Source: Bilabrum cf. latius
Lineage: Eukaryota
Reading direction: 5' to 3'
NCBI GenBank assembly: GCA_965178125.1
Contig: OZ237751.1
Coordinates: 682,001 to 746,000 of the forward strand
DNA length: 64,000 nt
In this document: positions 33,356 through 64,000 of the stretch, in pieces
Layout: the number at the start of each line of letters is the position of its first letter
Numbering within the stretch: the stretch's first letter is position 1
Translations under genes and position numbers: made by a program
The notes under the pieces: generated by a model
Seen by the model: the letters and a program-made list of their open reading frames with translations, nothing else
Told to the model about the DNA's origin: nothing
Databases searched by the model: none

Positions 33356-33485
33356 GCTGGAGCCTACTCGGTTGATGTGCGCGCTGGGATCAGCGTCATG
33401 GCCTACGACTCTTGGGGAGCTGGAGCCTTCTCGGTTGATGTGCGTGTTGGGATCAGCGTCATGGCCTACGACTCTTGGGGAGCTG
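33354..33485 (+). repeat. 63-bp tandem repeat (2 copies plus a stub) directly after the methyltransferase stop
   Basis: gagctggagcct.ctcggttgatgtgcg...tgggatcagcgtcatggcctacgactcttggg begins at 33354 and 33417; stub at 33480. Confidence 0.9.
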
Positions 33486-33586
33486 CTGATTTCGGCTCCG
33501 AGCACAGTGACGTGGGCAGATCACCACCGCGCGTGCTGTATCACGATAGTACTGAAAGGTGTTGTGCAGCGCGCACAAAGCGTATA

Positions 33587-34354
33587 ATGAATCGTGCAAG
33601 GTTGTTTTTGCAAAGATCTTATACGAAATCGCTGGTCCACTCGTTCACACAGCCGCGAAACATCCGATATGTGAACGTGCCTCCGGTGGACATGGTGTAG
33701 AGGAGCATCCCGCAAGTCGTCAATGAGATTGAAGCTTTGGAAAAAGAATCACCAAGGAAAAAGTGGCTGGTCGAGGAGCTCCGTAGCGATCATGCAGGGG
33801 AAACGGGAGCCGTGTACATCTACAAGGGGGCGCTTGCGGCACTAACCATGCGATAGCATGCACCTGCAACAGCTCAGTTTGTTGCATAGCATATGCGTAC
33901 CGAAGAATAGCATTTAAAGTTTATGTGTGAAGTGCTGCCGCCCCAGCAGCGCAGTGTGTTCATTCCGGTGTGGAGAGTGGCTGGGTGGGTCCTCGGATGG
34001 CTCCCCACAGTCATGGGCGGCGAGCGATGGCTCTTCGTCACGGTAGATGCGGTTGAAACTTTCGTTGATGAGCATTATTACGACTAGATTGCCCAGCTGC
34101 AAACCGACGATTGGGCCGAAGGCGGCTAGGACGCAACGACATAGACCGCCTTCGGTGCCAAGTGCGTAGTCCCAAATCTGCTGGCTCTTCTAAAGCATTG
34201 TAGGGAGGATGAAATTCATCATCGAGATGACGCACGAAATCGGCACATCGGCCCGGACGAAGAGGAGGAAGGTAGGAGCTTGGCGAAGAGGAGTTGGGCA
34301 GCTATTATCGATTCGGGCTCGCGAGCAGCCGTTCGCCTGGCTCGCTGGGGGTGA
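33587..34354 (+). CDS. COQ7: COQ7-family demethoxyubiquinone hydroxylase (di-iron carboxylate protein), 255 aa
   Basis: LRSDHAGETGAVYIYKGA, TEE*HL, IPVWRVAGWVLG, TVDAVETFVDEHYYD*I, CREDEIHHRD; Arg/Ser/Leu-rich presequence-like N-terminus. Seven TAGs (33698, 33854, 33887, 33908, 34085, 34127, 34142); ends TGA. The catalytic region is absent from the standard-code ORF track. Confidence 0.9.
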
Positions 34355-34519: not shown

Positions 34520-37500
34520 ATGGAGCTAAATTCATCATTTTTCATCTCGAAGTTGCGGGAGACCGGTCCGGTACGTCAAACTAATTCCCTGGCACAACCG
34601 CGAACTCAAATCAATTCAAAGGCTTGTCGCAAATTTGTTATTCCTTGGTCAATCTAACGCAGTCTATAGATTTGCTTGATCAGCTATCGGCTTACATACA
34701 AGAAATAGAGAGGCTTTCTCCCTCGGATTTGGATAAGACAAAGCGAGGCGAATGCTACGCAGCGCTGAAGCTCAGGGTTGCATGCGCATCGAGCTTGGGC
34801 CACAAGCGAGAGGCTTTGGCCTCTTGCATGAAGGCACTAAATTTGATAAGGTCGTTACCATTTATGCCGATACTGGAGCATGCGATGCTCTTGCGGCGAT
34901 GCGCATCGCTGTCGCTCGAATGCGATCTGGTGCAGCAAGCTCAAGCGATCCTACTGCGGCATGCAACGCTGACCAGGGACTTGCCCTCCAGCGGCGGAGG
35001 TTCCGCAGAACGAGAAGGCGCGCGCTCTCTGTATCGTCTAGTGTCATTGGCACGAGCTAAGACCAGGTTGAGTGAAGAACACCCAGCAGCAGCCAGTGCC
35101 AGTGCCAGTGCCAGTGCCACCTCTATGCTCAAAGCAGCCTTTACGGCCGATTTCAACTGCCACAGGGCAGAAGAGACAAGTAGGGAGCTCACGGTGTCCT
35201 AGACTATCCCTATGGTAGTGATGCACGTGGGTGATTGTCTGGATTAGCGTTCGAACTCCCCGCATACCCAGCCCCACGAGACTGGTTTGGATACCAGTGG
35301 TCGAGGCGCAAGCCATGCCGCCGGCCCTGGTGACTCCCATGTCCCTAGCTCGGCTGCAATGGCCATCGATCTGACGCAAGGATACGGAGATTCCAGCGAA
35401 GAGAGCTCTGCAGTGGACCTGCTGCACGGCGCAGGCAGTGCACGGTGCGATGATCTTGAATAGAGTTCGGGCGGAACCATCGGCTCCGCGTAGACGGGCG
35501 CAGCTCACGCCGCATCGACCCTTAAGAGACCTCGGGTGCAGATTTGGGCCATTTCAGACCCTGCGAGCATTATTGATGGCGTTCTATCCGCCCTGGAAGT
35601 GTGTATTGATCTGCTGTAGAAGCAGTCCGAAAGCAGGCGCTCTCTCGGCGCCCATGGAGGGAGTGTGTCTGAGGACGTCTCGGTCGGAAGCAGCAGACTT
35701 TCGTCACTGCTCTAGCAAGTGTAGATAGAGCTGATAGTTGAAAAGCCATCTAAACCGCTGACTCGTGCCCGTAGTCTCCTGCAAGATGGACACGGGGTCC
35801 GAAAGAAGCCTTCACCCTAGGCCGATTCCGTAGAGAATGCACCGGATGAATCCCGCTTGACGGCCCCAGCAAAGGCTCAGAAAAGCATGAGTGATGATGA
35901 CGATGATGTTGATATTAGCAAACAAGGTAGCGCTTCCCATGAACCTCAAGGTAGTCCAGCACCGGCAGCAGTTGCAACTGCTGCCAGTGGTGTAAGTGGA
36001 CCTGCGGTTGTGAGGCTCCGCCAGTCTCTGCGATACCCCGTGCTTTTGTAGAAGTTCAAGGCGGACAAACTGTACAAGTACCTACAGTGGATCTGTCCGG
36101 ACGGGGCTGTTGGCACGGCAGGGCAAGCCAGTGGTGACGCGCCTCATATATCCTCCCAGGCTGGCGCAGACCATACGGATCCAGCCGACCCTTCACAACC
36201 CAACATGCGTGATGATGGCTCGGGCGATTCCGGGCATGCAGAGGCGCCAGTAGATAAGGATCGCCCTGTGAGGCGGTACGAAGACGAGTACCCGATGGTT
36301 CATTTGCCTCACAGCATCGAGGACGAAGGCAAATCGCTGGAGCACGCCTTGTGGGAGCTATCGTCGTCCAGCAGCACGGGAAAAGGTACCGCTTCGCACG
36401 CTGTCAATCTAATGGATTTACTGCGAGTAGTGTCGTCGGCAAAGTGGTTCATTGCAAGGCAGCAGTCTTCCTACCCAGCGCTGTCGCTCCTGTGCTGGAG
36501 GACCAAGCTGCCTGGTTTCTACGGCTCACCAACACTCACCCCAGCGTGCATTAGTAGCCCCTCAGCGGATGCGATGCTACTCCAGGCCGTGGATATGTTG
36601 CAGTCAGCTGGGCAGGGACTCAGTATGAACGGGCAAGCCCTCACTTCCATTGGCCGGCAGGCCATGCTAGCGTCTTCGCAGGTGGTGCGGTCTGCTTGTG
36701 AGGGTGCTGGATCTGCTCTGCGGGAGGCTTTAGGCAGCAAGTCAATAGCCTCGGTTGCGCGAGACATTCACGTGAAAATGCTCGCACGAATTCGCGAAGA
36801 TGCGACGAAGCTGGCCAGTGCAGGAACGAGCGCTGCAACCACCCTCCTACCTGCATTCTCGCACCCCCAAAGCACTGCGCGTGGTAGCTAGGCATGGCCC
36901 AACGAATCGTTTGCTCCGTTGTCAACAACCACAATCGTTGGGTCGCTGACAAGCGTGTCAGATCTTCTCAACGCCATCGATGAAAGCGCACTGCCGGGCG
37001 TACTCCGAGAGGTGGCACCGACCCGAAGCCTAAGGGAAGCAGCGCGTGGCATCGAACAAGCCGCCTTTGTTTGGATGCTTCGTGCGTCCTCGTGGAGCAT
37101 TGCAACGGGATGCTCTACTGTGAAGCTCGCTGCATCGAGGCAAAGAGCCGGGAACGAGCGGGCCTGTCGTCTTCCAGCCCACGTGGCGTGGTGCGGTCTA
37201 GTTGCTACGGCAAATGTGCTGGTGTTGAGGTGTATGGCTCGTTTGTAGCAGAACAGGGCTGATGGGCAGCCGGATGGGCCGACAGCCTCAGGTCTTGACC
37301 TGGCGGCAGCAGCACAATACCTGCCCTTGCCCACGCAGGTGCGGTCTTGGCTCGTGCGGGCAGGTCTGGTGTACAGGCCAATTCTGCACTCTAGGCTGCA
37401 GATCAAGTCACGGCCAGACGAGGTGCTAGCAGGCGGTTCAAGTTCCAAGAGCGTTCCAATGGCTGTGCTTTCTTCGTTCCATCAAACGGACGCGCATGAT

Positions 37501-40500
37501 AGCATTGCCACTACGTGGAACGAGATCGGCGAGTCCAGGAAGCTGTGGCAAGTTGCCTGCGAATCTACGGCAGCCGCGCAGGACAGTGGAACGTCTCGGC
37601 ACCGCGATGTGCTTCGGGCTCGAAGGTTCGCAGCGCGTGCCGGAAAGCGAATGTTGCGAGCCATGAAGCGAGGGTCTTACGCTCTTACTGCATCCAGTAG
37701 AGACATTAAGTCGGCAACCAGCGGACATCGTATTTGTTGGGGTCTTCTTGCCGTGGCAGACGCAGCATTGGTTGTGTCAGGCACTGGAGATGCGGTGATT
37801 GATATTGATTCTGACTCATCAAGCGACAGCATAGCTTAGCGCAGGTCTTCGGCGGCAGTGGCTGCCAAGCGCCCAAGGCTGGACGGAATGCACACCGTGG
37901 GTACGCCGGATGCGCTGCAGCCACGGGATCCCAGACCCACTCTCACTGTTGACCAGCCGTCTCTCGCGAGTTAGGGAGCCGGCAAACTGGCTGCTGTTAA
38001 CCTTTTGGTTGGACTGCCGCCTATTTTGTCGATGGGAGTGGAGCTGGAGCCGTGGTTACGACCCTTGCACCTGGACTCGTTCTTCAACCAGAACCCCGGA
38101 GTATCTGCACGTGCAAGGGCACCGGTCCACGCCCACGCCCAACAGCAGCTAGACTATCTACCGCTAGCTACTGGCGACGAAGGTTCATCGCCGCATTCTG
38201 GCAGTGTTCGAACTAGGCTAGCATCTCTGTGGCCTCTCATGGATGGTCCCTCCCTGCTACAGCATCTTGATATTGCATCAGACGATGAGAGCGCTGCCCC
38301 GGACTCAGCCGCTTCTTCCAACGCCCCAGAGGCACTGGACGTGGGAAAAGAGCGAGCTCGTCTACAGACAGCTGATCGTGACGTGCAGGCGTGGGAGGTG
38401 CGCCGAGAGCACCTGGTCCCAGTGGTCGACCTGGCTACACCGGACAAAGAAGGTGGCTGCCACGTGCCAATCCCGTCTTCCACGGGCCCTTACAAGAGAC
38501 AGATGAGCAGCTTGGCAACGGCAACAAGTACCATGGCTACACACAGTGCCGCGGCTACCTCTGGCACACCGTTCAAGAGCCCAGGTCATCAGCTGGGTAG
38601 CAAGAGGGCCCGTGTTCGGTTCGAGCAGGCGACGCCGATGTCCACACCTGGTCAGGGAGCTCGTCGCTCCATGTTGCGTACAAGGTGTCACCCCATACAC
38701 GTTGACGGGACCACCGGGAGCTCTGAGGCTCGACTCACGCGGTGGACATGGCCCGAGCTCCAGCACGACATGCAAGACCTGCTGCGGGTCTCTTCGCCGC
38801 CACGATCTGCAGCAGACTCTCTGCCAGGAACAGCATTGGGCGGCATTCCATACGCTGTCTCCCCGTCCGATGCGTTATCAGTGGCATTACAGGCGCTCAT
38901 ATTGAGATGTGAGTGGAGAGCAGCTGCATAGCTTGCCAGTGACGCATTCGAGGCTATCCGTGAAACCATCCGTCACTTAGAATGCAACTCGGCTGCCGTG
39001 CCCGATGCCTTGCATGGGTGCGTGAAGCTGGGCTGCAGCGATTCACAGGCGAACGCGGCATTAATGGCAGCCGCTGGCAGCCTTCACCGAAGCTGCATCT
39101 CCGTGTTGATCGCATCGTGTGGGTAGCTCAGCCCAGCCGAGATCGTGGAAACTGGCGCGGCCCACACGCTCTCTGTGGTGGCCCGTGATAGCATGCATGC
39201 TGCTTTAGAGCCGATCGATCCGACAGTTGGAGTGCAATCCGACTTCAGTAGTAGCATGTCATCATTGTATACGCTCCGGTCAACACTTTCAGATGTAGCG
39301 ATGAAGTTCAAGCCTTTGGACAGCGCGAATTCGGCTGCACGGACTGCAGAATCGCCATCAGAGGCGTTAGCTGGCCTAGGATACTCTCTTGCATTGGCCA
39401 GGTGTTTGTCCTCTGCCGGGTGCTTTGGGCACGCATGGGGAGTCGTGCACGACTTGTTCTCTGCGTGCAACCGACCTATCCGTCATACCATTGACTCAAG
39501 CCTTTAGCCGCTCCACGCCAAAGAGCCGATGAGCAGTAGATCGAGGTATTGCCAGTCAGTCTCGTCTCTGTGCCTCAGGGAGCTGCTGCGTGCAGTATCT
39601 GGGCAGGTTCGGGTATCGTGCGGGCTTGGAGACCCGCTTGTCGCTGGTCGGTGCAGGCCATGGCGTGCCAGGTGGCAAAGCCGCGGCACTGATCTTGGCT
39701 ATGAATTCAGCGTTCCATAGCGAATCTCAGCCCGCAGCGACCGATACCATCCCTCCGAGATTCCCCTCGCGCAGCTCAACTAGCTGTAGCATGCCATTAT
39801 CTGGAACATCGCGTGCATGGGAACAGCGCAGCCGAAGGAAGACAAGCATGGTACCCCGCGCAAATCTCCACCAGGAAGCAGCAAGTAGGCGAGCACCCCG
39901 TCCTCGGCGAAATCCGGGTCCTCCTCCGGTAGTGCGGAAAAGGCAACGAAGAGGGTGGTCCGCCGATCCAAGAGGTAGTCCCTCTCCAAAATGGGATCCA
40001 GCGCAAGCCCTTCGGCCGTGCTGAAGCAGCACACAATTTTTTAGCCAGAGTTCGGATCGTGCGATTGCGAACTTCCGGGAGCACAGGCTGCGGACCGGTT
40101 AGGGGCCGCGTGGGCCTCGCTGCTGTGTGCCAAAGAGCCAATGCAACCAGACAGTTCACAATAGCTGAGGCCCATGCAGGGCGATATGCCCCTGTACTTA
40201 GGCCCCAAATGCTCTCCCTCAGACGTGCAAGAGGTGGCGATTCGCAGCATGGCTCGGCAGGCATACAGGGCATCAGGTGTTTCGACAAGCGCTCTTTGTG
40301 CAGAACGTGAGCTTCGGCCGGACTACGTGCACGATGCTTCGCTGCTTCGATTTGCATGGCTTGGGTCGTTTCTTGGTCACAGATCGACGGTGAAGCGTCG
40401 GGGCAATAGTGTCGTAGCAGGTACTGCAGGCGCGCCCGGACCTGCGCGCCCGGCTGGCCAGCCACTCATCACAGCGTCCCTGTTCGGGGCTTCGTCAAGC

Positions 40501-43500
40501 AGGACAGGATAGCAAGGGGGATTGACTGGTGCTAAACCCCGCCATGTTCATAGTGCAGACAGAGGGCCAGCTATGGACATGTATGTAGACAGCGATTCTG
40601 ATACCGAAGACGAAGACGGGCGGGCGCTTGGCTCGTTCCCAAAAGGCGTCACAATCTAGACTAACAGCGGCTCAAGGCAAGAGATACGTTCGTGGCCCAC
40701 TGCCGCCACTACCGTCGGCCGCACGTGCGTGTCTAGAGAGCATGCTGTGATGCAGCTTTGGCAGGATGGACAGCAACGGTCTGGGTACCAGTCGCTCTGC
40801 CTGCATGCCTTGGTCATTGTGCGGCTCGCAATTCAAGGTTTTGCGGTGCAATCGAATGATTCAGGATAGGAAACACGAGCTGCTGTGTCCAACGCGTTTT
40901 GTTTGCCGGCACTGTGGTAGCTTTGCAAGTAGGCACCGGCGCCACCGAGCAGCATGTGGCACTCGTCTGCAACTCCAACGCTTCTCCTAGCATGGTGTAG
41001 CAATCCAAGGGTTGTACGGGCGCTTGAGAGCATTGTACCTGAGAGAATTTGGGGAGGAGGGGAGCCGTTTGTGCCTCCAGATGATCAGGAGAAGGCAATT
41101 CTGGCTGCAGTACACTTTGGTAGAGGCCAGCATGTGCCAACGGCATCTCTGCCGCACATTGCAGCTGGCTGTATTGCCCGTGTTATGTCGACAGCTGTCA
41201 CAGTAGCAGGAGACATGGGAGATTTCACTCTTTCTGGTACGTTTGAGTGGAGCAGCGTAGCTGCAGAGCAGAGCGCCTGGGTTGGCCGTGACGACGATCC
41301 TCGCACTGCCTACGATTGGAGCCTGTGCGAGTCTCCCAATTCTCCGTGGATGACCTTGCCTCCGCTGAGGCTGCTTGCCGCCGCTACCGGGCTTTCGGTC
41401 GAAAACGAAGATGCTGGTAGCACTGATTCATCGCACCACGACGAAGAAGTGGAAGCGGCGTACAATCCATTGGTGGACGAGTACGATGGGCAGGCTACGG
41501 AAGGCAGTGGAGACAGTCGCAGCGAAGTTGGCGATAGACCTAGTGGTCAATAGGACGACGATGATGATAACGATGGCGAAGATGAAGTGGGTACATTTTT
41601 TGATTTTCTGCACATTCAGGACCCTAGAAGGGACTCGAGCTAGGACAGGTAGAGCGATGCCTCAGTACCGCGTGCTGGCTTCGTAGCTCGGCTAGGCAGG
41701 CGAGAATGCGCCCGGCTCGCTCACATCTTGGCACGGATCGCGCGTAGCAACGAGTCACAGATAGGTACGCTGCACGATGTACAGCTTGGTAATAGCGCCG
41801 CTGGAGAACCGGCTGTATCCGTGCCAAGCTTTCACTTGGTCGACTGGGAGCAGCCGTACAATCCCACCGGCTGGAGCGGGATCATCAGTGCTGCGTGCCT
41901 TCCTTGGGTCGCCTCGCCGTCGATTGATGCTGTCCTGTCAAAGATGCGAGCCCAACGCAGGAAAGAATCCGATGCTGGTAGGCCAAGCAACGATAGCGCA
42001 GCAGCGTTAGGTGCTGGGCCGGCCTCTGGCGCAGGCAGTAGCCCGTTCTCGTCAGTTGCACGTTTGCATGGACCGGCCGTGTGTTCACCGGAGCGTGCCC
42101 CTGAGCTAGTGTCGCAGGAGAGCCGATTGGCTCGCTCGCAGATGGTCAGACTGTCCTTGGTATCTGGCACAAGCGAACTGCCCCAGATGCTTGCGTCATC
42201 TCGAGTATCTTTCGAGCTAGGTAATGCGTCCCGGGTGCTATCAACACTTGCCATGTTCCGCCCTCCGGCCTCGAATGAGACCTCTGCGTTGGGCGTCACT
42301 GCTGCTGATGCTGCGCTAGCGTGGTCGTCCAAGTGGTGGGATAAGCAACAGCAATCAGTGAGCTCTGGGTCGCCGGAATCGAAAGCTGAAGCCCTACAGC
42401 TTGAAGCGCTCTGCATGCTGTGTGCACCGAGTGCAACTTTGCGCATGATGATGACCAGTAAAGGCGCAGTAAACGTTGCTTCGGTTCTGGGCGATGCATC
42501 TGATATGGGTGCTATGTTCTAGCACCTATAGATTCCTGCCATTGTTGGGATGAACACGGGAGTTATAAAAGTCGCAATTTTGTCAGGATCGCCAAGTCCT
42601 ACTCAAAAGCTTGTGATTGCATTCAAGTACCGTGCTTCTCGTAGCTCTGCAACGTCCTCAGGTGTAATGTAGGCGATCGATTGGGCAGGATCTGGCTGCG
42701 CAAGTTACCTATCTCTAGCTCCGCGGATGCATCTGCACGTGCAGTGCCAGCAACTAGACTGTGTCGCCGGTGCTAGTGCTGCATTCAGCCAGTGTCCGGG
42801 TACTGTGAACCATAAACATCTCAGTCTGCTTCTTACAGGTTACCGGAGGGAAGTTGGTGCCGCTGACTGCGTGGGCCAGTCGTCTTGGGTGCGGAAGTGC
42901 GTGGGAGGCGTCGACTGTGGATTCCGAGATGTCGGTTAGTACGCTCAATTGCATTCAGCCGTGCGTGCCGTGGCAAGCTCAACTGAATTCAGCAACTCCT
43001 GGGACGTCAACGATTCTGTGTAGTCAATGGTGCAGCTGCCTGCCGAAGACCGTGCGCTTATGTCGATGTCTCGGACAAAGTATCAAGACGCAGCCAGACA
43101 GGCTCGCGCTCTACTGACAGACCTAAGCCGGATCATGCAGGGCATTGCAAGGCACCCTTTGAATGTTGGCCTCTGGATTCGCTCCCTCCGTGTCTCTGAT
43201 GCGCTTGCATCGGATGTAGCGTCCCGCAACCCCTGCAGGCGACTAATCGGCATGGCCTCTGACGAGCTAGATGGCCTGGATTCCGCCACTGCTAGCCAGA
43301 TGGAGTGGAAACAACGCCAGTAGATTACTGTTGGAGTTGCGACCATGCCTCCCCTGTGGTTCGGGCTGGTTCACACTGAAAAATTCACTGCAATGCATGC
43401 CCACGGTCAGTCAGTTGTCCTAACAATTCTTGCTGCGGCTGGACTGGAAGTACCGCACCTGCGCTGCGATCCTTCGGGTCTGAATGAGAACGGCTTTTTT

Positions 43501-46260
43501 GGGTTTGAAGAGGGAGTTGACTTGATGAACTGCCTCGGCTAGTGCAGCTCCGGCGATGGATCTGCCGAGTCCAGAGTGCTGAGACGCGCAGCCGTGCTGG
43601 AATGCGCGCGAGCCCATGTGCCCGAGGTCAACGGGCGAAGGCGATTGGCATGCCAGCTGCTGCTGCAGCTAGCCTCTTCCCATTATGCTGCTGCGCGAGG
43701 GCTGCAAGAGGCCTCATTCAGCTCATTTAAGCTTTCGTCCGAAGCGTTCGGCGGGGCAAGTGACATAGCATCGAGAATCGCATTGGGAGAGGTTTCGAAG
43801 GGCGAGTCAGGCGAGGTGCAGGCAGCGAGATCTAGGCATCTTCGCCTGTGCATAGCATACGCTTTCGCGGCCATTGAAGTGGGGACTGCCGCTGGTGGTG
43901 ATCCATCGGGCGTATCTACAGGCGCAGGCACTGGCTCTGGGACCGACTCTAGTGCTGCTCCTGGTTCTGGTGAATCAAGCGGAGACGCAGGTAGCACAGC
44001 GGACGAGGGCATTTCGAGCGAATCCCCCCTTTGGCTCGACATCTATCGCTGTGCAGCGAATTCAGAGCCATCTGGAGAAGCACCATCAGGGGATGCAAAC
44101 CGGCACGCCCGTTCTTCCTTGCTGGACGACCTGCAAATAGTGCGACGGTCCGCTGAAATCACCTCCCGACGCGCCCTTCAGCGGCTTTCGAACGAAGCAG
44201 ATACGAGCTGGCCCTTTGATTGGATCAGCGATGCGTTTGGAATTCTAGCAAAAGCAGGTTCAAAGTTTCTCAGAGCTTCTTGCAAGCGCTAGTCAGGAGC
44301 AGGAAGCGCATCTGACGTTGCCATGTTGAGCGCCACTGCACGAGCAGCTGTCCTCCCCCTACACGAAGCCTCGGTCAGGTGTGCCGCCGCATTTGAGATT
44401 ATCGAAACGAAAAAACCAAGGAAGGTCAAGCTTGTCTCTGGGCTTGCAAAATCTCGCCCTGGCGTCGACGAAATTGGGCTCATCCTGTCTTGCGCCCCGA
44501 TCGGTTGGCTGCGTCCGGATCCGAGCAATCGAGGCCAGAGTAACTCACGCTCGTGGGACATGGCTTGGCATTCTACGGCGATTGAAGCAGCGAAGGCGTC
44601 GCTCTCAGTTGCAAAAGTAATTCATGCAGCAGAGCCTCCGTCGGCAGCAGATAGAAGTTCTGTCGACGCGGCACATGCTGTTCTGTCGTCTGTGCAGGGG
44701 ATATCTGCGTGGGTGCAGGCGCAAGGCAAGGTAAAGAGTGCTTATGAGGCTGCAAGAAGTAGATCTGTAACCTTGCTAGGCAACGCTGGTGATGCGAGTG
44801 AAATTACGGGTGATGCGAAGACTGCCTGCCAGCAGATGAGCAATCAGTGTTCCATTTTCTTGGCTGACGTGTTGCTTCACAGTGCCGCACAAAGCCAAGT
44901 GTCAGCGTCGTCTGCCTCGTCATCTCTTGCTGCCACTGGTCACGGCAGCTCTGTCTCTCATAGGGTTTGCCTTGTTAGGGGTCGCGGCGATGGCGAGAAA
45001 TCTCAATTGGGGGCCGATATATCGGCATTTCTTGTAGCTGGCGATAGCAACGCACCTGGCTTTAGTGACGACCACGGTCATGGTGACGTTGGCGGCAAGG
45101 GGCCCAAGCTACTGAGGCTTGAGGGCATGCAAGAACATGCCCATTCGCTGTGGTCAATGTGGCAGGTAATGCAGTGCTTGAAGTCGCTCGAGAGCTTGTT
45201 TCAAGACGAAGACAACAGCCAGCAGCTCGCTGTGGTCAGCACGTCACGACTGCTGGTGCGCATGCACGGGGTAGGCAAGCAGTGCATGGCGGCCATGTCT
45301 GGGGCTTGCACTCGTGCGCTCCAAGCACCCGTGCCTCCTAGCGGCCTCCTCGGAGAAACTGCGGTAGTGTCTGCCCTTCTGAACTCCGACGAAGCGTTGC
45401 AGCAGCACTTCCCTGCGTCATGTGGACCCACGGCAGTCGAGCCTGATGGTTGGTTGTGGCAAGCCCACGGTACACTCATGCAATTGACGAGGTGTTCAGT
45501 CAACAACCAACCCTTGTCTTTCTACATTTACGGGGGCTCATCCACTGGAGAGCGGCTAGACTTGGAGGCGTGCGACACGAAGTGGCAGATTGACTGCGGT
45601 CGCGCTCTCGATGCAATGGCTGCCACGGCGTGGATGCTTGTGCTTGCTGGATGGCAGCGAGAGCCTGCGGCCGGCCGTGGCGACTGGGGAGCTGCGGCTC
45701 AGCAGCTGGTCGAGGCCATCCGTAGCTCATGTGAAAGGGTTGCAGTCACTCACAAGAGAGAGGGGCAGCCGGCCATCGCGGCTCACTCTCGAGTTTGCTC
45801 GGCTATTGGCGGAATTGCAGTCGCAATATCTCAGCCCACACCCGAGGCTCAACGGGTAGCGATCGCTGCCCTGTGGCGTGAACTATCGTCTTCCGTTGAC
45901 AAAAGGGCTGGGCAGCTGCGGTGGAGGCCTCGCGCGGCTGGCCGTCTGCTTGTTTCGCTGCTAGTATCCATTGGCTTGCCAAAGCGGCAGCGCATCGAAC
46001 CCTCGCAAGAGATGCTCAAGAGCCTCAAGCTCTTCGCAGGCGGGCTTGTACGAGGCATGGATCCAGGGCAAGGGATCCGCGAAGAAGAGGAAACCTAGAG
46101 GTTACAATAGGCTGTAGAAGCCTCGATTGACGAAGCTTTGGTAATAGCAGGGGAGCAACAAGGGCCGCTGCTGGGTGCCTTGGGGGCTGGTCTGTAGCTA
46201 GCCAGAACCTGCCTCGAGTCTGGAGCTAAGACTTTGCAGCCTGAAAGTGAAATGGGTTGA
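34520..46260 (+). CDS. Giant hypothetical helical protein (about 3880 aa)
   Basis: Frame +1 from 34663 to TGA 46258 contains about 40 TAGs and no TAA/TGA. A short first exon 34520-34570 is proposed via intron 34571-34662. TPR-like N-terminal helices (HKREALASCMKALNLIR). Confidence 0.75.
34571..34662 (+). other. Probable spliceosomal intron (92 nt)
   Basis: GTACGT donor and CTAAC immediately before the GCAG acceptor; supplies an ATG for the giant frame and removes TAA 34582. Confidence 0.5.
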
Positions 46261-53015: not shown

Positions 53016-54299
53016 TTATTTGCCTGTCCGCGCCCTCTTGGACCCGACGGCAGCACCACTGCCACCACTAGCACCACTTGCAGCAACCTCATCAGAGCCC
53101 GGGGGAGCACCTTCAGCACCGCCACGGACCTCACGTGATTTCTGTTCTGCAGCTTGGCAGGCCCTTAGCGTGCCCTTGATGTACCCAATGGCGAACGCTG
53201 AAGCAGCCGCAGGACCCGCCGATTCCACAAATTCCGGCGTGTGGTCCAGGATCACCGTCCCGTCGTAGCCGCTGCTGGTCATCGCGCTGCATATCGCGTG
53301 AATATCACCGTAGCCCTCGTCAATGAACGTCTCTGCGAACTTTGGAAGAGGCCCAGTGACGTTCCTGAGGTGCACGATGAAGACCTTGCCCCGCCTGCAG
53401 TAGTCTGACAGGCATGCTTCCAGGTCGCCGAATCCCTTGCCACCCTCTAGCCAGCAGCCGCAGCAGAACTCCATGCCCAGCCAAGGGGAGTCCTTAGCGA
53501 TTCTAAAGACCCTCTCGTATGCCTCTCGGGATCGGATCAGGCACGGCACACCTGCAACAGACGGAACTGGCGGGTCGTTCGGATGCAAGGCCAATCGCAC
53601 GCCCAAGCGAGCGGCGTGCGGGAGCACCTAGCCCAAGAAATACTCCAGGTTGGCCCACAGCTCCTCTTCCTCGTACTTTTCTTTTCTTTTCCACGACGAT
53701 TCGGCAGAAGTGGCACTGGACGCGGCAGATGGTCCGGCCGATCCAATGGCTGCCTTGCTGCCAACCGCAGAGGCGACTGCGGCGGCATCCTTTGGGAGAA
53801 GACCTGCGTCAACCGCGCGGGCCTATGTATTGCCACGCACTGTTGACTCGCCTGTTGACCACACCCCGTCTGGCTCCCACGTAAACGTTGTGGTATTGAT
53901 ACCAGCCGCCGACAGAATCTCCAGCCACTCTACGAATTTTGCTATGGCTGCGTCTCTGTCTGGCGTTGCCAGTATGATGTCTTTCGATTTGCATCTCAAG
54001 CGGTTTCCGACATTGAATAGGCTCAAGCCACGGTCGGACAGAGTCTTGCGCAATTCGGTGAGATGCAATATCGAACAGTGCTCCTCGTTGATCCAAGTAA
54101 AGCAATGGGAAACTCCCATCTGTACTAAGAGCGTTATTTCATCATCGGTAGGAGCTGGTGACACCAAGCAACTCATTTTTGGCCCGGATCGGAGCACGTT
54201 GGGTTGACCGGCTGCCGCTGAGGTCTTCACTACGATCTTGTCCGCATGAGCTGGGGCATTGTAGAAGCCACCTTTCTTCTCATAGTTTTTCTACTCCAT
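53016..54299 (-). CDS. uxuA: Mannonate dehydratase (UxuA family), 427 aa
   Basis: [77 protein letters not shown]. TAGs at 54291, 53823 and 53628; intronless; ends TAA. Confidence 0.9.
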
Positions 54300-54808: not shown

Positions 54809-57800
54809 TTATTTATGCCCATGTCGATGCCCACGCTGCACGAGCTGCTCAACTTGCGCCCTCCGCACCGGCTTCAAGAGAATATCCTCTGCCCCGCTCG
54901 ACCGGAACAAAGCCTGATCTTCCGGCAGAGCATTCCCAGTCACACCCACAATCCGCACCCCACGCACCCTCTCGTCCTCATCGCCCCGCACAGCCTGTGC
55001 CATCTCAGGCCCCGACATGCGCGGCATCGAGAAGTCCAGCAGCACCAGATCCACCACGGGCTTCACGTCAGCCCCACTGCCACCGCCAGCAGCACCCTTA
55101 ACCCCAGTCTCCTCGGCCTGCTGCTCTCTGGCCCTCTGCCTCAGCAGGTCCAGCCCCTCCTGCCCGTCGCTGGCCGTGAGCACCTGAATGGATCGATCCA
55201 CGGTGCGCACCATGCGGGAGAGGAAGAGCCGGTTGGTGCGGCTGTCATCCACCACGAGCACGCTCTGAACCTTCTGAGACATGCTCCTTACTTTCGTCTT
55301 CTACGTCCTTGCTTTCCTACGTGCTACTCCGCTGCCTGCTGGTCTAGGAGCATTGGTCGTGGTCGTTGCGTCCGGCTGCAAGCTTCTTTCAACCACGCCC
55401 GAAGCAGTCGACCGAGAAGAACTGGACCCGCTCGATGTTTTTCGTTTGCGAACCTGTCTCCTCTTCTTTTTGGGGACAGCCGTTTCGCTTTTGACAGGCA
55501 AGCTGCCGGCTGTCAAACTAAGCTGAACCTACGCTGTGCCACCAGTCGCTGAGCCAGACGCGAGTGAACGAAATGCGCTGTCACCGATCCCTTGAGGGCT
55601 ACATGCACTGGGACCCGTTTGGCCGGAGGTCAGGCTCGTGACAATCGATCTGTTTCCCGATTGGTGCTCCGGTGCCGGGGATGCCAGCATCCTTAGCCAC
55701 ACAAAGAACACGCTGCCCACTCCAGCACGAGACGAGAAGCCCACGCATCCACCGTGCATGCGGATCACCGTCGCCGTGATGGCCAGCCCCAGCCCAGACC
55801 CCTGCCCCTCCGCCGTGAGGATGCCCGAGTGCAGCGTCTCGAAGGGGGTGAAGACCTTGCCCCAGTCCTTGCGATGGATGCCGGGCCCCTCATCGAGCAC
55901 CCACAGGCACACCGTGACATAGGACTCTTCGATGGCCAAGCTTGCCAGGGCGCCATCCCCTGCCCCTTGCTGCTGCATAACTGCATCGCGAGCCAGCGAT
56001 TCATACATACGAAGGGTATCCGGGGCAACGTGAGCCGCACCCACAAGGTCATCGTCCTCGCAATCCATCAAGTCCTCGTCCTCCAACGGTGTCGCAGCAG
56101 CAGCAGTCCCGAGAATACCATCCTGGCTTGACTGGCCACCTGTTCCATGCATCACGGCACGAAGCGGTGGAATAGGCACTAACTTCGTGGAAGTTTCCTG
56201 CAAATCATCGACTTCTTCACCGTCAAGTTCCTTGGTGATGCCAGCTGATGTGGCCCCAGCTCCACGAGCTCCATCTTGGATAGAGGGATTCGTGTCAAGC
56301 GGTACGGCTTGTATGCGACCATGGTTGATGCCACGAGCAGCCTAGTCATGCTAAGTGTCAACTTCGTTTGGTACTACCTGGTTCACGCGTATCTTTTGGT
56401 GTGAGCTGTCGCCTGCACTGGCACACCTCGTGCCGTTCTGCAAAGCCTACGAATCCGATGGATGCTGACCTGGCTGCATTCCATTAACAACTACTCGATA
56501 TAATCTGCCTGCTAGTTCCTGTCCCAGCCCACCCACTGCCTTCTGCCATTCAGACACACCCCACAGGTGAGGTGGCACCTCGCTCGACCCAAACACGATA
56601 CGCGGACGCTGAGCTGCATCACCACGACCCCGCATCTGCAAATCGCTCAGCCGCTTCACCAGCTTCTCGTCCGGCCGAGACCACTTCAACGCATTCGATG
56701 CGTAGTTGTACAGAGCCCCCCGGATCCGCACAGGGTCGCACGTGAAGCTGCCGCCAGACGCAGGGTGCGAGTCGTACATGAGCACCTGCACGCCAACGCC
56801 CTCCGCCTGGGACGCGAAGGTGCGCTGAGCCTCTGCCAGCACGCCGGGCACGAGCGGGTTGGGTCTCTTGGTGATCTTGAGCCTGCCGGTCTCGATGTGC
56901 TGTAGGTCTAGCACGTCGTTTAGTGTGGTCTGCATGGCCTCGGCGGCAGCATCGAGGGAGGGCAGGGTCTCGTCGAAGATCTCCACGGCCTGCTCGATGT
57001 GCGAAAGAGCTGAAGTAGTCTGGCCGGTCCGATGCTCTTCTGCATCAGATGATACGTAGGAGTACGACCCCCGCCGCTTTCGCAACGGTGGATCGAGCTA
57101 CACAGAACCTGCGGAAGACTCCGATACGGCTGATCGTCGCATTTGAACCAACGCCTGTCTCACCGCGGTCGCACCTTCCTGGCAGAAGTCCAGCCCTAGC
57201 ACTACTGAGTTCAGAGGCACCCTGCACTCGTGCGACAGGAATCGCACCCTCGACTGCAGCGCGGCCCTCTGTTTCTCTGATATGTCCATGGCGCGCTCTA
57301 GCTCACGGGATTGCCGAGCGTACGTGAGCACACCAGTCAGCAGCAGGACGCGAATGCACACCGAGACGGCCCGGTAGGCTATGTCAGCAATGGCATTCAT
57401 GTGAACCTACGGGGTGGATTCTTGGTCCATCACAGCATCTAGTGATCCGTTCAAGGTGGATTCAGAGCACAGTGGCGAAGCAAATGCCTACAGTCCATCC
57501 AGCCTTGCTTGGGTGCAAGCAGCGGTGTTCGTGGCCTCCCGTGTGATCCACCCAAGCACATAGATAGCAATTAATTGCTCGACTATGATAAGCATCGCAC
57601 AAACACGAAGCTGCAGTCCGATACGAGCCGCCCTGTCGATACTAGTCTGAATTAGGGGAGACACGGACTTCCGAAGCATGCGCTACCCGCCCGTCTTTTC
57701 TGACCTGAGCGACATAATGTGCTTAGCTTCATCCTGGGCTGAAAACATAGACCTGCAATCCAAAGCTCGTCTTGATATGGCACACGCTTCGTGCAAGGCA

Positions 57801-59596
57801 ATAATAGCGGGCAAATCATCCGAGGTTTTCCGGTCAAAGCCGGTGTCTCGTACAGGAAGCTCTTTTGGAAGACTTGATATGTCCGGCCTCCAGCACGCAG
57901 GTAGCCTGCCGCAGCAGCATCCCCACAGCATGCATCTGGCACAGCATGCCTCCACATCCAGCAACTACAACGAGCGGGAACTCTGGTCTGCCCTGGACCA
58001 ACCCCTCACTTCGCTAGCAGCCTGTTGCGTGGCTTCGTCCATGCCTCTGGTAGGTGTGAGCACTACAATCAGCACGAATCCTATGTACGTGGGCGTAGCC
58101 AAGAAGCTAAACAGCATGTAAATGGAAGTTGTAAATGAAAACTCATCCATAGGTAGGCTGCTTGCCGAATCCAACTCGCCGTCAACTGCGAGGGACGTCT
58201 CGTTGCTGCTGATCTCCACTGCGCCACCGAGTGATATCACGGGTGCTGCCGCCGGGCCCCGCCTAGCAAATACTAGTGGCAGCGCATCCGCGCGTTGGTA
58301 TGAGGGGATGCTATCCAGCAGCTAGATGGCCTGCATCAGTGCATTCGTTTCGAAGTACGAAGCGGTGCGAAGGCTGAAAAAGTTGAAGTCTGCGAGTGCC
58401 AGCCGGTTGTGTAGAGGTAGCATGAGGTCATCCACGGCGCTATCATTAAATCCATACGATCCGGCTTGCTCCTTGAGCGCGCTGTATGAAGCGTTAAATA
58501 CCGTCCGAGTGTCGTAAAGGGTGCCATAACTGGCGTTGTCGTTTGCTTGCTGTGGGAGGTCATCGAGCGAGCCGACGACCTCTGCCTGTCTTAGCATTGA
58601 CAGAAACAGTACCGGCTATCCCGCACTGCCCCGGATGTCTGTAAGTATTGAGGCGGGCATGCCGGAGTAGGTGGCGTTCCCAATCTCTCGCAGCATGCCA
58701 TCAAGCTAAGCATATGCCCCAATGCCAGCGTCTGCCACAGTGACGGATGCGGCCAACCTCGACAAGCCCATCATCCCTATATTACCTATATAGAAAAATC
58801 CGCCCGTAATGCCAAATACAGCTATCGCAAGGGCACGCCTGGTCTTCAGCGTGAACTCGACAGCGGGGCGGGCAGAAGTTGTTGAGCTGATGATCATGGA
58901 AATCACGGTCGCAAGCACGATTACAACCGTCGTTGCCCATGGCTATCCCATTGCCCCACCCTTGATGATGGTTACAGCACGAATGTGACCAACTTGTGGA
59001 CCTTCACCAGACAAAACGCCTGAGAGCATCAGGATGGCAGCGTAGCACTGCTCAACGACCGTGGTGATTCCAGCGTCAACAGGACCTGGGCCGAGCATTC
59101 CCGCGCGGTCCAGCGGGACATACATAAAGTAGGATTCACATAGAATAGCAGCAGCCAAAATGCTCAGCAGGTAGGTCATCAGCGCATGTCTATCGTAGCT
59201 GCCGCCGCTGCAGTCCTTCGCTCCCGTGGTTCGGCTGCACGTCTCGCGCGTAGCAATATATGCACTCATGAGGAGCGCAGCAGCACTCAGTAGTATAATT
59301 AAGGCTGATACAGTGGCTACTGATACTTGCATGCTTCCAACTGCTTCAAGGTCAGAAAGAGTTGGACCAACGCTGCTGTGAAGCCCAACAAATCGCGGAA
59401 ACTCGAATGCAATTGAATACCCCACATTTATCCTCCAAACTGTGGAACCGCCAAGCAGTCTTGCTATTGAATCAACGAGTGTCACTCCAAATACAGTCGA
59501 TAATGCAGCACTAAATACAAGACATCCCGCCTGGCTGAACGTTGCATTGCGAACTAGAGCATCCAATGACTTGGCACGGTGATTTATTTCTCCCAT
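54809..59596 (-). CDS. Membrane-bound hybrid histidine kinase (multi-TM sensor, HisKA, split HATPase, receiver), paralog 1, about 1595 aa
   Basis: H-box RFLSHECRVPLN, N-box RIRGALYNYASNALKW, G1 VLDEGPGI, F-box KVFTPF, G2 GSGLGLAI; receiver VLVVDDS...LLDFSMP...VTGN...KPV. All fragments are in one frame separated only by TAG; ends TAA. The 5' end may extend further. Confidence 0.9.
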
Positions 59597-59820
59597 GAAC
59601 TTTCTAAAAGGAACAAATCCTTACAACGTTAACCAAGATGAGTCGAATTGGTGTAAAAAGTCTCTACACCAGCGATAAATGGACAACAGAAGTCCCTCAT
59701 CAATTCCGTTGAGGTAATTCTCTTCATCTTCAAACATCACAGGAGTGCCGCGGTCGCAAGGAACAATTCTAAGAGAACCGCTTCGCATTCGCTCAAAGAA
59801 AAATAGGTGGGCATATCTTG

Positions 59821-62800
59821 TCATGAGACACCCACAAGTACCGTCTCAATTTGCGCCCTCCGCACCGGCTTGCAGAGAATTTCCTCTGCCCCGCTCGACC
59901 GGAACAAAGCCTGATCCTCCGGCAGAGCATTCCCAGTCACACCCACGATCCGCACCCCACGCACCCTCTCGTCCTCATCGCCTCGCACAGCCTGTGCCAT
60001 CTCAGGCCCTGACATGCGCGGCATCGAGAAGTCCAGCAGCACCAGATCCACCACGGGCTTCACGCCAGCCGCACTGCCACCGCCAGCAGCACCCTTAACA
60101 CCAGTCTCCTCGGCCTGCTGCTCCCTGGCCCTCTGCCTCAGCAGGTCCAGCCCCTCCTGCCCGTCGCTGGCCGTGAGCACCTGAATGGATCGATCCACGA
60201 TGCGCACCATGCGGGAGAGGAAGAGCCGGTTGGTGCGGCTGTCGTCCACCACAAGGACGGTACGCTTCGGCTTTGTCTAAACCGCCCCAGCCTTACCGCT
60301 GCTATGTCTTACGCTTGGGCTCTGTGGCACCAGCAATCCGAATCCGGAATCTTCTCTGGATCCCATGAGCAAGTGGCTCGACCGTGTTGCGTTGCTGCCA
60401 CCGTCAGCAGCGGTAGAGCCACTGGCATCAGTAGAACGCCGCTAAATTCCCTTGCGCTTGACCATTCGACGCTTCTTACTTTGCTTCTTACTCCCAGTTG
60501 ACGAGTCAGCTTCGGCCAGGCTGCTAGAGCGGAAGCTGCTCGATTGATAAACCCCCCCAGCTTCTGCAGCTGCACCTCCACTGCTGGCCACTGCTGCCGA
60601 AGTGGCAACTTTTCTCCCGGTATTGCTATTGCCTCCATCTGACTGCAGTAGAATGCTGTTGGCAGTGATGCGACCCTCTTTGCTCGCATTCTCCAGCTAG
60701 ACACTGCCACCGCTGGGACTGTGCAACTCAACGCTGCTCGAAGGCAGCCGAGTTGGCGCAAGGGGCTGGACACCCATCCTTAGCCACACAAAGAACACGC
60801 TGCCCACTCCAGCACGAGACGAAAAGCCCACGCAGCCCCCGTGCATGCGGATCACCGTCGCAGTGATGGCCAGCCCCAGCCCGGACCCCTGCCCCTCCGC
60901 CGTGAGGATGCCCGAGTGCAGCGTCTCGAAGGGGGTGAATACCTTGCCCCAGTCCTTGCGATGGATGCCGGGCCCCTCATCGAGCACCCACAGGCAGACG
61001 GCTTGCTGCATGTGATCGGCCTGGCCCTAGCTACTCAAACTAGCCCCTGTTCCGCCTCTGGCAGATACCAAATTCCCTTCGCCACTAGCGGCTTGGTACG
61101 TCCCACTAGTGATCCGGGGATCACCAGCACCGGCGTTATCTGCAGACCCCTAATGAGGCGTTGCCATCCGAGAGATGGACGATCGAGCAGGCAGACTTGG
61201 TGCTTCACTCGAGCTCTCAAGCGTACTGCTGCGCTTCCGCGCTCTTTGTCGAAGCTGAGGGCGGGCCAAGATGGCATCGTACCTGTCCACAGTATCTGGT
61301 GCAATCTGTGCGAGACTGTCAGTAAACGGCTGCGAGTCATGGCTTGGCAAGTATCGTGTCGATGCACGGGCTGATGCAACCCCAGCATTGCGCTTCCTCG
61401 CTGATTCTGACGCTGCTTCCTCTGAAATAGCGCTTTGTGACTCGCTCCCTCGCTTCGGCAAGTCCGGAATCTTGGCATTCCGCACCGCCCTTGCCGCCTC
61501 CAAGTCCTCCCCGTCAAACATCCCGCTGGATAGGCTAGAGTGGTTAGACATTGACCTGAAGCTGTGCCTAGAGCTATAGGCTCCGTCAAGCTCGCCACTA
61601 CTGATCGGACTCAGGCCAACTGGGACCACAGAAGAGCTTCCATCCTGCCCTTCTTGTGACTTGCTGTCGGCAGCGACACTACGCGACATGGCTGTTTCAG
61701 ACCCACTTGTAGATGCACTACCTTCCGTCGTCTACGTTACAATGGTATGCAGCTTACCTGCTAGCACCTCCCCCAGCCCGCCCACTGCCTTCTGCCACTC
61801 ACTCACACCCCACAGGTGAGGTGGCACCTCGCTCGACCCAAACACGATCCGCGGACGCTGAGCTGCATCACCACGACCCCGCACCTGCAGATCGCTCAGC
61901 CGCTTCACCAGCTTCTCGTCCGGCCGAGACCACTTCAACGCATTCGATGCGTAGTTGTACAGAGCCCCCCGGATACGCACAGGGTCGCACGTGAAGCTGC
62001 CGCCAGACGCAGGATGCGAGTCGTACATGAGCACCTGCACGCCAACGCCCTCCGCCTGGGACGCGAAGGTGCGCTGGGCCTCTGCCAGCACGCCGGGCAC
62101 GAGCGGGTTGGGTCTCTTGGTGATCTTGAGCCTGCCGGTCTCGATGTGCTGTAGGTCTAGCACATCGTTGAGGGTGGTCTGCATGGCCTCGGCGGCAGCA
62201 TCGAGCGAGGGCAGGGTCTCGTCGAAGATCTCCACGGCCTCTCTCAACAGCTGAGTAGGTCCATCAGCAAGACCCAGGACAAACGCCGCGCCCATTTTGT
62301 CATCCGTAACATCGCCAACAACTTGAACGTTGTCCGACCCTCGGCGTCGAGAACCGCGTCGTCGAATTGGATCTGTGGTGGATTGACGTCCAACTTGTCT
62401 AGCGGCTATCTCTTTTTGCTGCAGTGCTGCTTCCAGTGCAAGCCTCACCGTCTTGGCTCCCTCCTGGCAGAAGTCTAGCCCTAGCACTACTGAGTTCAGA
62501 GGCACCCTGCACTCGTGCGACAGGAACCGAACCCTCGACTGCAACGCAGCCCTCTGTTTCTCCGAGATGTCCATGGCGCGCTCCAGGTCATGCGATTGCC
62601 TTGCGTACACATACACGCATCCAAGCAGCAGAGTTCTGAGAGCAAACATTATGAAACGAAGTGTAATGTCGACCGCAACGCTGGTGCGAGTGTACTCGGC
62701 AGCCTTCACTCGAAGAAGTTGATCCACCGGTGCAGCCATCGTTGCTTCGGTGCAAGATTCTGACAGGGAGTCAACACCGGCAATCCTGGCCTGTGCGCAA

Positions 62801-64000
62801 GCGCACAGCTCTGTCATGCGGAAGAGCGTCGCAGACATGATGGGAGTGAACAGCAGCTGCTCTGCCAGAATGAGCACGCATAAAGTCTTCAGCACCGAGC
62901 CCAGCTGCGCAGATCTGTCCATACCGGCCTGTACGAGCGGGGATACTGACATTCGAATACCCTTTTGCACCCCGTCTTGCTTGCGCATCGACAGCAAATG
63001 CCTGGCCTCCATAGTTCCTGAACCCTCGCCACAGCAAGCGAGGGATCGCCGAGCAGTCACACATATCTCATGAAAGCTCTGGATGCCTTTCCATTCGAAA
63101 CGGCTCAGCGCAGCCCTCGATTCCGACAGAGTACTTTGAGTTGGAGGTGAAGGCATAGAAATGCGGACAGCTGGCCGACACCACTTCGGTAACCTGCCAC
63201 AGCAGCAGCACAAGCACCATCGCGCCAGGCGGGCCTCAACATCAAGAAGCTGACAAGGCCTATCGGCTCGCTTGTCGTTGTACCAGCGGTATACCTCCAT
63301 AGAAGCGTCCTGCGTCGCTTCATCCATGCCTCGGCTAGGTGTTGCCAACAGGACCAGGACACATACGACAGACACGGGGAACATGACGAACACACACACG
63401 CAGAATAGAGCCCAAAGAATCGTGAAAGCGCTCACGATGCTGAGGTCAAGAGCGCTAGGCACACTTTGGGATGCGATAGTGGCGTTAATGCCGCATAGCG
63501 TTAACTAGCCGTCATTATGAACCCCAATAGGCAACGCATTCGCTCGATTCTGGGGTGACATGGGACGCAGGACTTCAAGGAGGCTAAATACTAGCTGCGT
63601 CTCATCCAGCGAGGCAGTGCGCCCGCACAGGTGATTCTGATCCGCAAGAGCGACGCGATTCCAGAGAGGATTCAGATCAATAGACTGGCCATCGCCACCG
63701 TCGCCGCTACTATCACCACTGCCTCCGGAGCCGTCGCCTTGGACCATGCAGGCAGCACCGCCGTATCCAGAAGACATGGTCCACAGCTTGTTTGCGTGAT
63801 CAAACCACTGATCTACCTGGTACGCCGACCCATTGAAGTCGGCATTCTGTTCTTGCATATCGTCAATAGCACCAGTGAGCTCTGCCTGTCGTAGCAGCGA
63901 CAGGAACAGCACCGGCCTCCCGTTGCTGCCTCTGATGTCTGTGAGCATAGAGGCGGGTTTACCGGAGTACGTCGCGTTATCCAGACCATCAAACATAGAC
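59821..64000 (-). CDS. Membrane-bound hybrid histidine kinase, paralog 2 (5' end off window)
   Basis: Same H, N, G1, F, G2 and receiver motifs as paralog 1; one frame with TAG-only interruptions; ends TGA 59821-59823. Confidence 0.9.

Follow-up and report, generated by a model that had tools for sequence, protein, structure and literature searches.

TAG as a probable sense codon

We asked what the TAG codons mean that stand in frame in genes of Bilabrum cf. latius. The question is raised by a stretch of 64,000 nucleotides (GCA_965178125.1, OZ237751.1, forward strand 682,001-746,000; hereafter the window, whose numbering is used for positions), in which two hybrid histidine kinase paralogs carry in-frame TAGs. 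An earlier note on this DNA had observed that TAGs in one paralog face CAA or CAG in the other and had offered this as database-independent support for glutamine (Gln). From a survey of the whole genome (48.6 Mb in 111 contigs; contigs C3, C23, C35, C95 and C111 below belong to this assembly) we conclude that UAG alone is very probably read as Gln by the nuclear code, and that UGA (mostly) and UAA remain stops. The decisive support for TAG = Gln comes from outside homologues, gene ends and a tRNA rather than from the paralog pair.

The window is gene-dense eukaryotic DNA with 59% GC. Its longest stop-to-stop frame has 601 codons under the standard code versus 3891 when TAG alone is read through. 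Reading TGA as sense was rejected: it opened numerous medium frames, yet the longest had only 717 codons. Sixteen open reading frames (ORFs) of the window hold 160 in-frame TAGs in total. Because 15 of these 16 carry at least one, annotation under the standard code would truncate many proteins of this organism.

The meaning of TAG was read from dyneins, of which 19 loci (62,836 codons, 273 of them TAG) were aligned to 270 outside homologues; the homologues were collected with two queries, one with X at TAG and the other a stretch of a locus with a single TAG. In columns conserved to at least 90% the residue was Gln at 18/19 TAG sites, 22/28 CAA sites and 158/176 CAG sites. At the 70% threshold the counts were 27/40 for TAG and 33/51 for CAA, and at 50% they were 33/59 and 53/98, respectively. 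Log-odds summed over the 174 sufficiently covered TAG sites were +126 for Gln, -68 for Glu, -126 for Lys and -283 for Tyr, and the same score returned the standard meaning for 61 of 61 sense codons. The mean Gln fraction was 0.25 at both TAG and CAA sites, with equal profiles. No aromatic column was found among the 174 TAG sites, and Tyr ranked 17th of the 20 residues. Within the dynein loci TAG (273) was used less than CAA (394) and far less than CAG (2291). The share of TAG dropped as the GC content of third codon positions (GC3) rose (Spearman -0.87, 20 ORFs). UAG is a minor Gln codon, avoided in high-GC3 genes.

Searches for domain matches gave a similar picture. Internal stops were TAG only, both in dynein matches (20 in 12 of 28) and in proteasome matches (6 in 5 of 19). 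The possibility that TAA is sense too (UAR = Gln, NCBI table 6) was not borne out, as no TAA was found inside the kinase, dynein or proteasome matches. The single-copy essential genes for eRF1, PRP8, glutamyl-tRNA synthetase (GluRS) and dynein-2 have in-frame TAG and no in-frame TAA or TGA. PRP8 (L088 119-8491) also has an insertion of ~170 residues in its N-terminal part compared to homologues.

Gene ends and the release factor

Where, then, do the genes end? At 27 gene ends defined by markers the stop was TGA in 22 cases, TAA in 5 and TAG in none. Seven dyneins with ends in the retrieved DNA stop in register with their homologues (TGA 6, TAA 1). Of 30 Ras-family loci, 20 end in a cysteine prenylation-type motif followed directly by TGA (16) or TAA (4); the remaining 10, without the motif or 5' exons, were left uncounted. 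TAG was also not depleted towards gene ends: in the final 100 codons it accounted for 10 of 92 Gln-type codons, and elsewhere for 206 of 1811 (22 genes). Since none of the 27 ends uses TAG and there is no 3' depletion, UAG does not serve as a terminator among the genes sampled, whose main stop is UGA.

The gene for eRF1 (contig C35; L083 2051-3924) has four exons separated by GT-AG introns and 438 codons, and it stops with TAA. Two in-frame TAGs fall within the domain that recognizes stop codons (N domain), the first of them at a position where 82 of 86 homologues have Gln. Production of eRF1 itself requires reading through these two UAGs, and a feedback between termination strength and eRF1 level could exist. 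The GTS motif, E55 and S70 are retained. Unusual changes are G29A, N30D and K130H (each shared by 0 of 86 homologues), S60V (1 of 86) and N129S (2 of 86), in human numbering inferred from the motifs in PMC5304391. The resulting motif forms are TAVNIKS (with S60V) and YMCDSHF, and the Ser of the unusual motif also occurs in a related eRF1 (P0007). In PMC4695839 the eRF1b of Euplotes is given with TAVNIKS and Tetrahymena with YFCDSKF, and human eRF1 that bore the Tetrahymena motifs showed more read-through at UAG only. We regard the motif changes as leads to a possible cause of the loss of UAG as a stop.

A tRNA with the anticodon CUA

In an Rfam search 63 of 780 tRNA candidates were scored and 48 listed, and among those listed one has the anticodon CUA (contig C23:907607-907679, minus strand). 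This single-copy CUA tRNA has a score of 69.8 bits and a cloverleaf fold, and a run of six Ts comes after it; it is surrounded by TAG-bearing ORFs on a 1-Mb nuclear contig. No nuclear UUA tRNA appeared in a pattern search, which an intron-bearing tRNA would escape. The 11 CUA/UUA hits of this search were the CUA tRNA itself, 3 hits in mitochondrial tRNAs of other anticodons and 7 without such a tRNA by ARAGORN. The pyrrolysine (Pyl) label that ARAGORN gave was set aside, as it follows from the anticodon only and the TAG columns are Gln. Of 72 matches to a suppressor-tRNA pattern, 19 are one 32-base AT-rich sequence, identical at 19 places on 14 contigs and probably part of a dispersed repeat.

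We compared the CUA tRNA with 37 distinct nuclear tRNAs that could be parsed (3 were unparsed, and His and Leu tRNAs are not among the 37). The nearest was the organism's own tRNA-Tyr, with 20 of 24 stem bases in common (acceptor 12/14, anticodon 8/10). These include C1-G72, which only these two of the parsed tRNAs have, and both share a five-base variable loop. The other isotypes matched at fewer of the 24 bases (Ser 13, Gln(CUG) 12, Trp 10, Gln(UUG) 6), and the highest match between different isotypes among 597 pairs was 17/24. In a position-wise shuffle, which ignores kinship among tRNAs, 20/24 was reached in 0 of 20,000 draws. When all 51 positions are counted, the match to Tyr is 33 and does not surpass the background maximum of 36. 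The CUA tRNA differs from tRNA-Tyr at 19 positions; 10 of these, including G73 and A37, equal Gln(UUG), and the D stem is that of Gln(UUG) at 8/8. Descent from a tRNA-Gln was not favoured, the body being not closest to the organism's own tRNA-Gln and only the D stem fitting Gln(UUG). A scan of viral contigs with the anticodon arm (16 bases) gave 8 loci, one of which (L399 276-347) is a phage CUA tRNA with the same 16-base arm and a U1-A72/G73 body; it shares 9/10 anticodon-stem and 6/14 acceptor bases with the CUA tRNA. Its body is different, and a phage origin was rejected. The shared anticodon stem makes that stem weaker as evidence for Tyr, so the acceptor stem carries most weight. Taken together, a Tyr ancestry seems to us the better supposition, with considerable room for doubt.

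Which amino acid would this tRNA carry? The eukaryotic Tyr determinants are A73, C1-G72, G34 and U35, and the bacterial Gln elements include G73, G2-C71, G3-C70, G10, U35 and A37, according to the table in PMC9976931, in which the eukaryotic Gln entry is blank. The CUA tRNA keeps C1-G72 and U35 and has lost A73 and G34, which does not leave a functional eukaryotic Tyr set. It holds the bacterial-type Gln elements G73, G2-C71, G10, U35 and A37. One glutaminyl-tRNA synthetase (GlnRS) and one GluRS were found among the aminoacyl synthetases of the genome. The CUA tRNA is probably charged with Gln, as judged by these elements.

In the mechanism that we propose, a copy of tRNA-Tyr would have undergone a GUA to CUA change, an origin that we hold to be fairly probable. 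Of the Tyr determinants the copy would have dropped A73 and G34, and it would have acquired G73, G2-C71, A37 and a D stem of the Gln type. The tRNA would be expressed and charged with Gln by the single GlnRS, would read UAG and not UAA with its C34 unable to pair with A, and would out-compete a modified eRF1 at UAG.

Two further observations concern the tRNA set. Between the tRNA-Pro(UGG) (contig C3:1096678-1097064) and the members of a multi-copy tRNA-Met(CAU) family 16-17 of 24 stem bases agree, and one such pair is adjacent; this likeness is a possible second case of tRNA remoulding. The anticodon of the nuclear tRNA-Ile is GAU, an unusual one in eukaryotes; by contrast, A34 forms are present among the tRNAs found for Ala, Thr and Pro.

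The kinase paralogs

Both kinase paralogs lie on the minus strand. Paralog 1 (54809..59596) encodes 1595 amino acids with TAG read through, has 14 in-frame TAGs and stops with TAA; its layout is a hydrophobic N-terminal region, HisKA, HATPase_c and a receiver domain. Paralog 2 (59821..63999) has 7 in-frame TAGs inside the window and stops with TGA; its complete ORF has 1693 amino acids and 10 TAGs and starts ~900 bases past the window end. HisKA, HATPase_c and receiver are present in one chain in both, with HisKA below the Pfam cut-off (19.6 and 22.5 versus 26.9 bits). A third paralog adjoins the window, and the three stand in tandem. The DNA of paralogs 1 and 2 is near-identical in the blocks that encode kinase core, ATPase and receiver (GC3 0.79) and has diverged in the rest (GC3 0.57), a pattern suggestive of gene conversion or strong constraint.

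The positions of all seven codons named in the earlier note proved exact, and both of its Gln pairings were reproduced when the two paralogs were aligned with MAFFT. The TAG at 57683..57685 of paralog 1 faces CAA at 62965..62967 of paralog 2, and the TAG at 57965..57967 faces CAG at 63250..63252. With the third paralog added, the codons are TAG/CAA/CAA at the former site and TAG/CAG/CAA at the latter, and a block that is otherwise invariant, DAAAEAM-Q-TTLNDVL, reads CAG/CAG/TAG, with TAG in the third paralog. We consider it highly probable that these swaps are synonymous changes among three Gln codons. The TAGs did not arise by misassembly: in contigs from the runs of three studies no letter differed at any covered TAG (X4, 57284-59911 and 62514-63930; X5, 57284-59663; X6, 57208-58359), the best of these runs being possibly itself the source of the assembly.

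The statement that the other TAGs face polar residues holds for the three that were named. The TAG at 58616..58618 is opposite Arg (AGG) in both other paralogs in a well-aligned context, that at 57488..57490 is opposite Asp in paralog 2 and Glu in the third paralog, and that at 58322..58324 is opposite Glu and His, poorly aligned at a local identity of 0.19. The list was selective, however. Hydrophobic or aromatic residues or gaps opposite TAG, which the note had regarded as contrary to Gln, are absent from the named TAGs and occur among the remaining ones (Val, Tyr and gaps, as well as Pro), mostly in poor alignment. The 21 in-frame TAGs (14 + 7) have 2 Gln, 6 gaps and 13 other residues as partners (R, E, D, Y, S, E, V, V, P, N, G, S and K), 11 of the 13 at a local identity below 0.3. 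A hand calculation with Gln at ~4.5% of codons gave p ~0.14 for 2 of 15 aligned TAGs at Gln, and p ~0.01 for 2 of 4 in a well-aligned context (local identity >=0.4). The near-identical blocks (668 codons) contain 30 CAG, zero TAG and zero CAA, and the comparison of two paralogs therefore cannot be a strong control. The pair thus pointed to the correct meaning of TAG, and taken alone it is weak and only suggestive.

More weight comes from the rest of the family, whose alignment the note had proposed as a check. The hybrid histidine kinases are strongly expanded in this genome, with 46 matches and at least 23 distinct genes on many contigs, many of them in tandem pairs. Internal stops in the 46 matches are all TAG (37, in 20 of the matches). 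Of 30 loci 23 were aligned, 7 that overlapped the same genes being dropped, and pairs were counted at a flanking identity of at least 0.5. TAG was opposite Gln in 94 of 194 pairs, much as CAA was (203 of 403); Arg (22) and Ser (15) were also found opposite TAG. Of the 32 TAG columns, 15 have a majority of Gln partners and none has a majority of Tyr.

Among the other genes of the window, an ORF of 3810 amino acids (34828..46260, plus strand) has 42 in-frame TAGs and stops with TGA, and a COQ7-family gene (33398..34354, plus strand) has 7. A gene of the mannonate dehydratase (UxuA) family at 53016-54299, a family that is mostly bacterial, has 3 in-frame TAGs and is therefore written in the host code.

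Alternative meanings of UAG

Several observations weigh against UAG = Gln, or against the proposed tRNA, and have to be set beside the evidence above. The reading of UAG as Gln is drawn from DNA sequence. At the 50% threshold 10 of the 59 dynein TAG columns are Glu, and both alignable TAGs of PRP8 stand at residues other than Gln, namely Pro (118/118 homologues) and His (119/120). The second TAG of eRF1 is at the Leu69 site, where the 86 homologues have Leu (82) or Gln (4), and the Iotanema-type change T32G is absent from an intact GTS. Of four COQ7 TAGs aligned with a single solved homologue, one faces Gln (34085) and the others Ser, Lys and Asp. Matches in the Ras search held 2 internal TGAs and 1 TAA, possibly within introns. 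The arginines opposite TAG 58616 and the other non-Gln partners in the paralog pair belong here too. As for the tRNA, its acceptor stem fits the organism's own Gln tRNAs poorly (2/14 and 6/14) and retains C1-G72, a eukaryotic Tyr determinant; at least 12 matched acceptor bases occurred in 3 of 170 unrelated pairs of a smaller set; and Gln charging is argued from bacterial rules because the eukaryotic Gln elements are blank in PMC9976931.

Could UAG be ambiguous, meaning mainly Gln? The CUA tRNA would then be charged partly or wholly with Tyr (or Glu or Lys), and Gln would be inserted by the near-cognate tRNA-Gln(CUG). The Tyr-like body with its C1-G72 and U35 would agree with this, as would Glu being the second-best residue at TAG columns. 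Yet the Tyr determinants A73 and G34 are lost, Tyr has the low rank given above with no aromatic TAG column, Glu is second-best for CAA too, and near-cognate decoding alone could hardly cope with as many as 48 TAGs in 3333 codons; we consider this improbable. A context-dependent code, as in Condylostoma, would have UAG as Gln internally and as a stop near mRNA 3' ends. Only 27 marker-defined ends were available to judge this, but TAG was at none of them, there was no 3' depletion, and in two window genes TAGs stand 17 and 21 codons upstream of the stop, so that we give this code very little credence.

The standard code might be saved by editing of UAG to CAG in the mRNA (U-to-C) or by splicing out of the TAGs, and GT-AG introns do exist in the genome, as in eRF1. 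However, a cognate CUA tRNA is present, the TAGs are within continuous domain alignments, frames of 3333 codons are open, and TAG swaps with CAA as well, which makes editing or splicing no more credible than a context-dependent code. Finally, the genes could be pseudogenes in which TAG is a nonsense mutation, or the letters could be sequencing errors. Decayed copies would not surprise in a kinase family of 46 matches, but this reading is already refuted by the TAG-only pattern in single-copy essential genes, and other runs have identical letters; we find this the least believable of all. UAG as a Gln codon read by the CUA tRNA is thus the explanation that we prefer.

The organism and its relatives

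To which lineage does this code belong? The best-scoring named match of eRF1 is Cafeteria roenbergensis (69%). In a quick eRF1 tree the organism groups weakly with Cafeteria at a Shimodaira-Hasegawa-like approximate likelihood ratio (SH-aLRT) of 81, and in a quick dynein-2 tree strongly with the Cafeteria group at 98, or 100 after two rows were dropped, with one named bicosoecid in the tree. It has a long branch in both trees, and Cafeteria is the nearest named row. Among the clusters to which 10 proteins were assigned, two had an organism name, Pythium and Platysulcus. The organism is likely a divergent bicosoecid, judged by these trees. Its genome has an 18S rRNA gene of ~1700 nt; another 18S gene, which differs from this one, has ~1800 nt and lies on a contig of 17.9 kb (C95:6099-7900); it is a possible contaminant and presumably dinoflagellate-like. 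A relative from a metagenome (L159, 1 of 80 loci) is 82% identical in nucleotides, and its eRF1 has TAG where this genome has CAG; this swap concerns a single site, where most other eRF1s have Glu.

In the mitochondrial contig (C111; 38.4 kb, 24% GC) TGA stands for Trp, and a UCA tRNA is present. The contig carries 22 of its 23 long ORFs on one strand, and all 23 end with TAA. By ARAGORN it has 10 tRNAs only, implying heavy tRNA import.

Comparison with known codes

Has such a change been described for the nucleus of a stramenopile? No nuclear reassignment in stramenopiles or bicosoecids was found among the papers listed by literature searches, in which the coverage was thin for subscription journals. 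In their accessible text, PMC12152300 and PMC12153298 hold only a mitochondrial Labyrinthulea reference. That B. cf. latius represents the first nuclear code change in stramenopiles, in a Cafeteria-related lineage of at least two species, with a Tyr-recruited amber tRNA switched to Gln and UGA as main stop, is a proposition for which we see the arguments as evenly balanced. The codon table as such is already known; new would be the lineage, a termination mostly at UGA and a tRNA that seems to derive from tRNA-Tyr. Codes that split UAG from UAA are rare; the sources at hand list them only for a single fornicate, a single rhizarian and some ciliates, and report no tRNA seen in the Gln cases. The tRNA, eRF1 and GlnRS are all contained in this near-complete assembly, which makes two questions testable, namely how eRF1 drops UAG and keeps the other two stops, and by which features a eukaryotic tRNA becomes a Gln acceptor. 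There may also be a link to giant viruses. A catalogue of them has genomes best read with single-stop reassignments and, in the text accessible, no isolate whose host has such a code (PMC13524828). A relative of the flagellate that hosts Cafeteria roenbergensis virus (CroV) would be the kind of host that giant viruses with TAG as sense need.

Cafeteria roenbergensis, the nearest named organism, is still distant, its dynein-2 being only 37% identical. Its genome has 34-36 Mb and ~70% GC, compared with 48.6 Mb and 59% GC in the window here. Mitochondrial UGA is Trp in both, as it is in Cafileria (PMC6723347, bioRxiv 10.1101/751586), and the accessible text of bioRxiv 10.1101/751586 mentions a non-standard code for the Cafeteria mitochondrion only.

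UAG as Gln with UAA as stop is reported for Iotanema, Hartmannula, Trochilia and Protocruzia (PMC5304391, PMC11687900, PMC10089648, PMC9161772). Iotanema spirale (Fornicata) has the same codon table, with UAG as Gln and UAA and UGA as stops, in a different supergroup (PMC5304391). UAA is the dominant stop there, whereas TGA is at 22 of 27 ends here, and its eRF1 has T32G whereas GTS is kept here. For Iotanema an unseen CUA tRNA was predicted to come from tRNA-Gln(CUG) (PMC5304391), while the CUA tRNA here is closest to tRNA-Tyr; a Tyr-derived reader, if true, would contradict this expectation. The ciliates Hartmannula sinica, Trochilia petrani and Protocruzia tuzeti have uncoupled UAG from UAA in the same manner (PMC11687900, PMC10089648). 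The phyllopharyngeans among these ciliates prefer UAA as stop, and these sources describe the suppressor tRNA as undetected in H. sinica and T. petrani. A dedicated CUA tRNA, as here, is found in other ciliates, namely tRNA-Leu(CUA) in TARA metagenome-assembled genomes and tRNA-Glu(CUA) in PL0344 (PMC11687900, PMC10553269). Those suppressors resemble tRNAs of the residue that they insert, whereas the CUA tRNA here resembles the tRNA of another amino acid. In this respect the closest parallel to our proposal is in yeast mitochondria, where a codon was reassigned by recruiting the tRNA gene of another amino acid (PMC3113583). The yeast case is mitochondrial, sense-to-sense and biochemically shown, while the change proposed here, from its sequence, would be nuclear and stop-to-sense.

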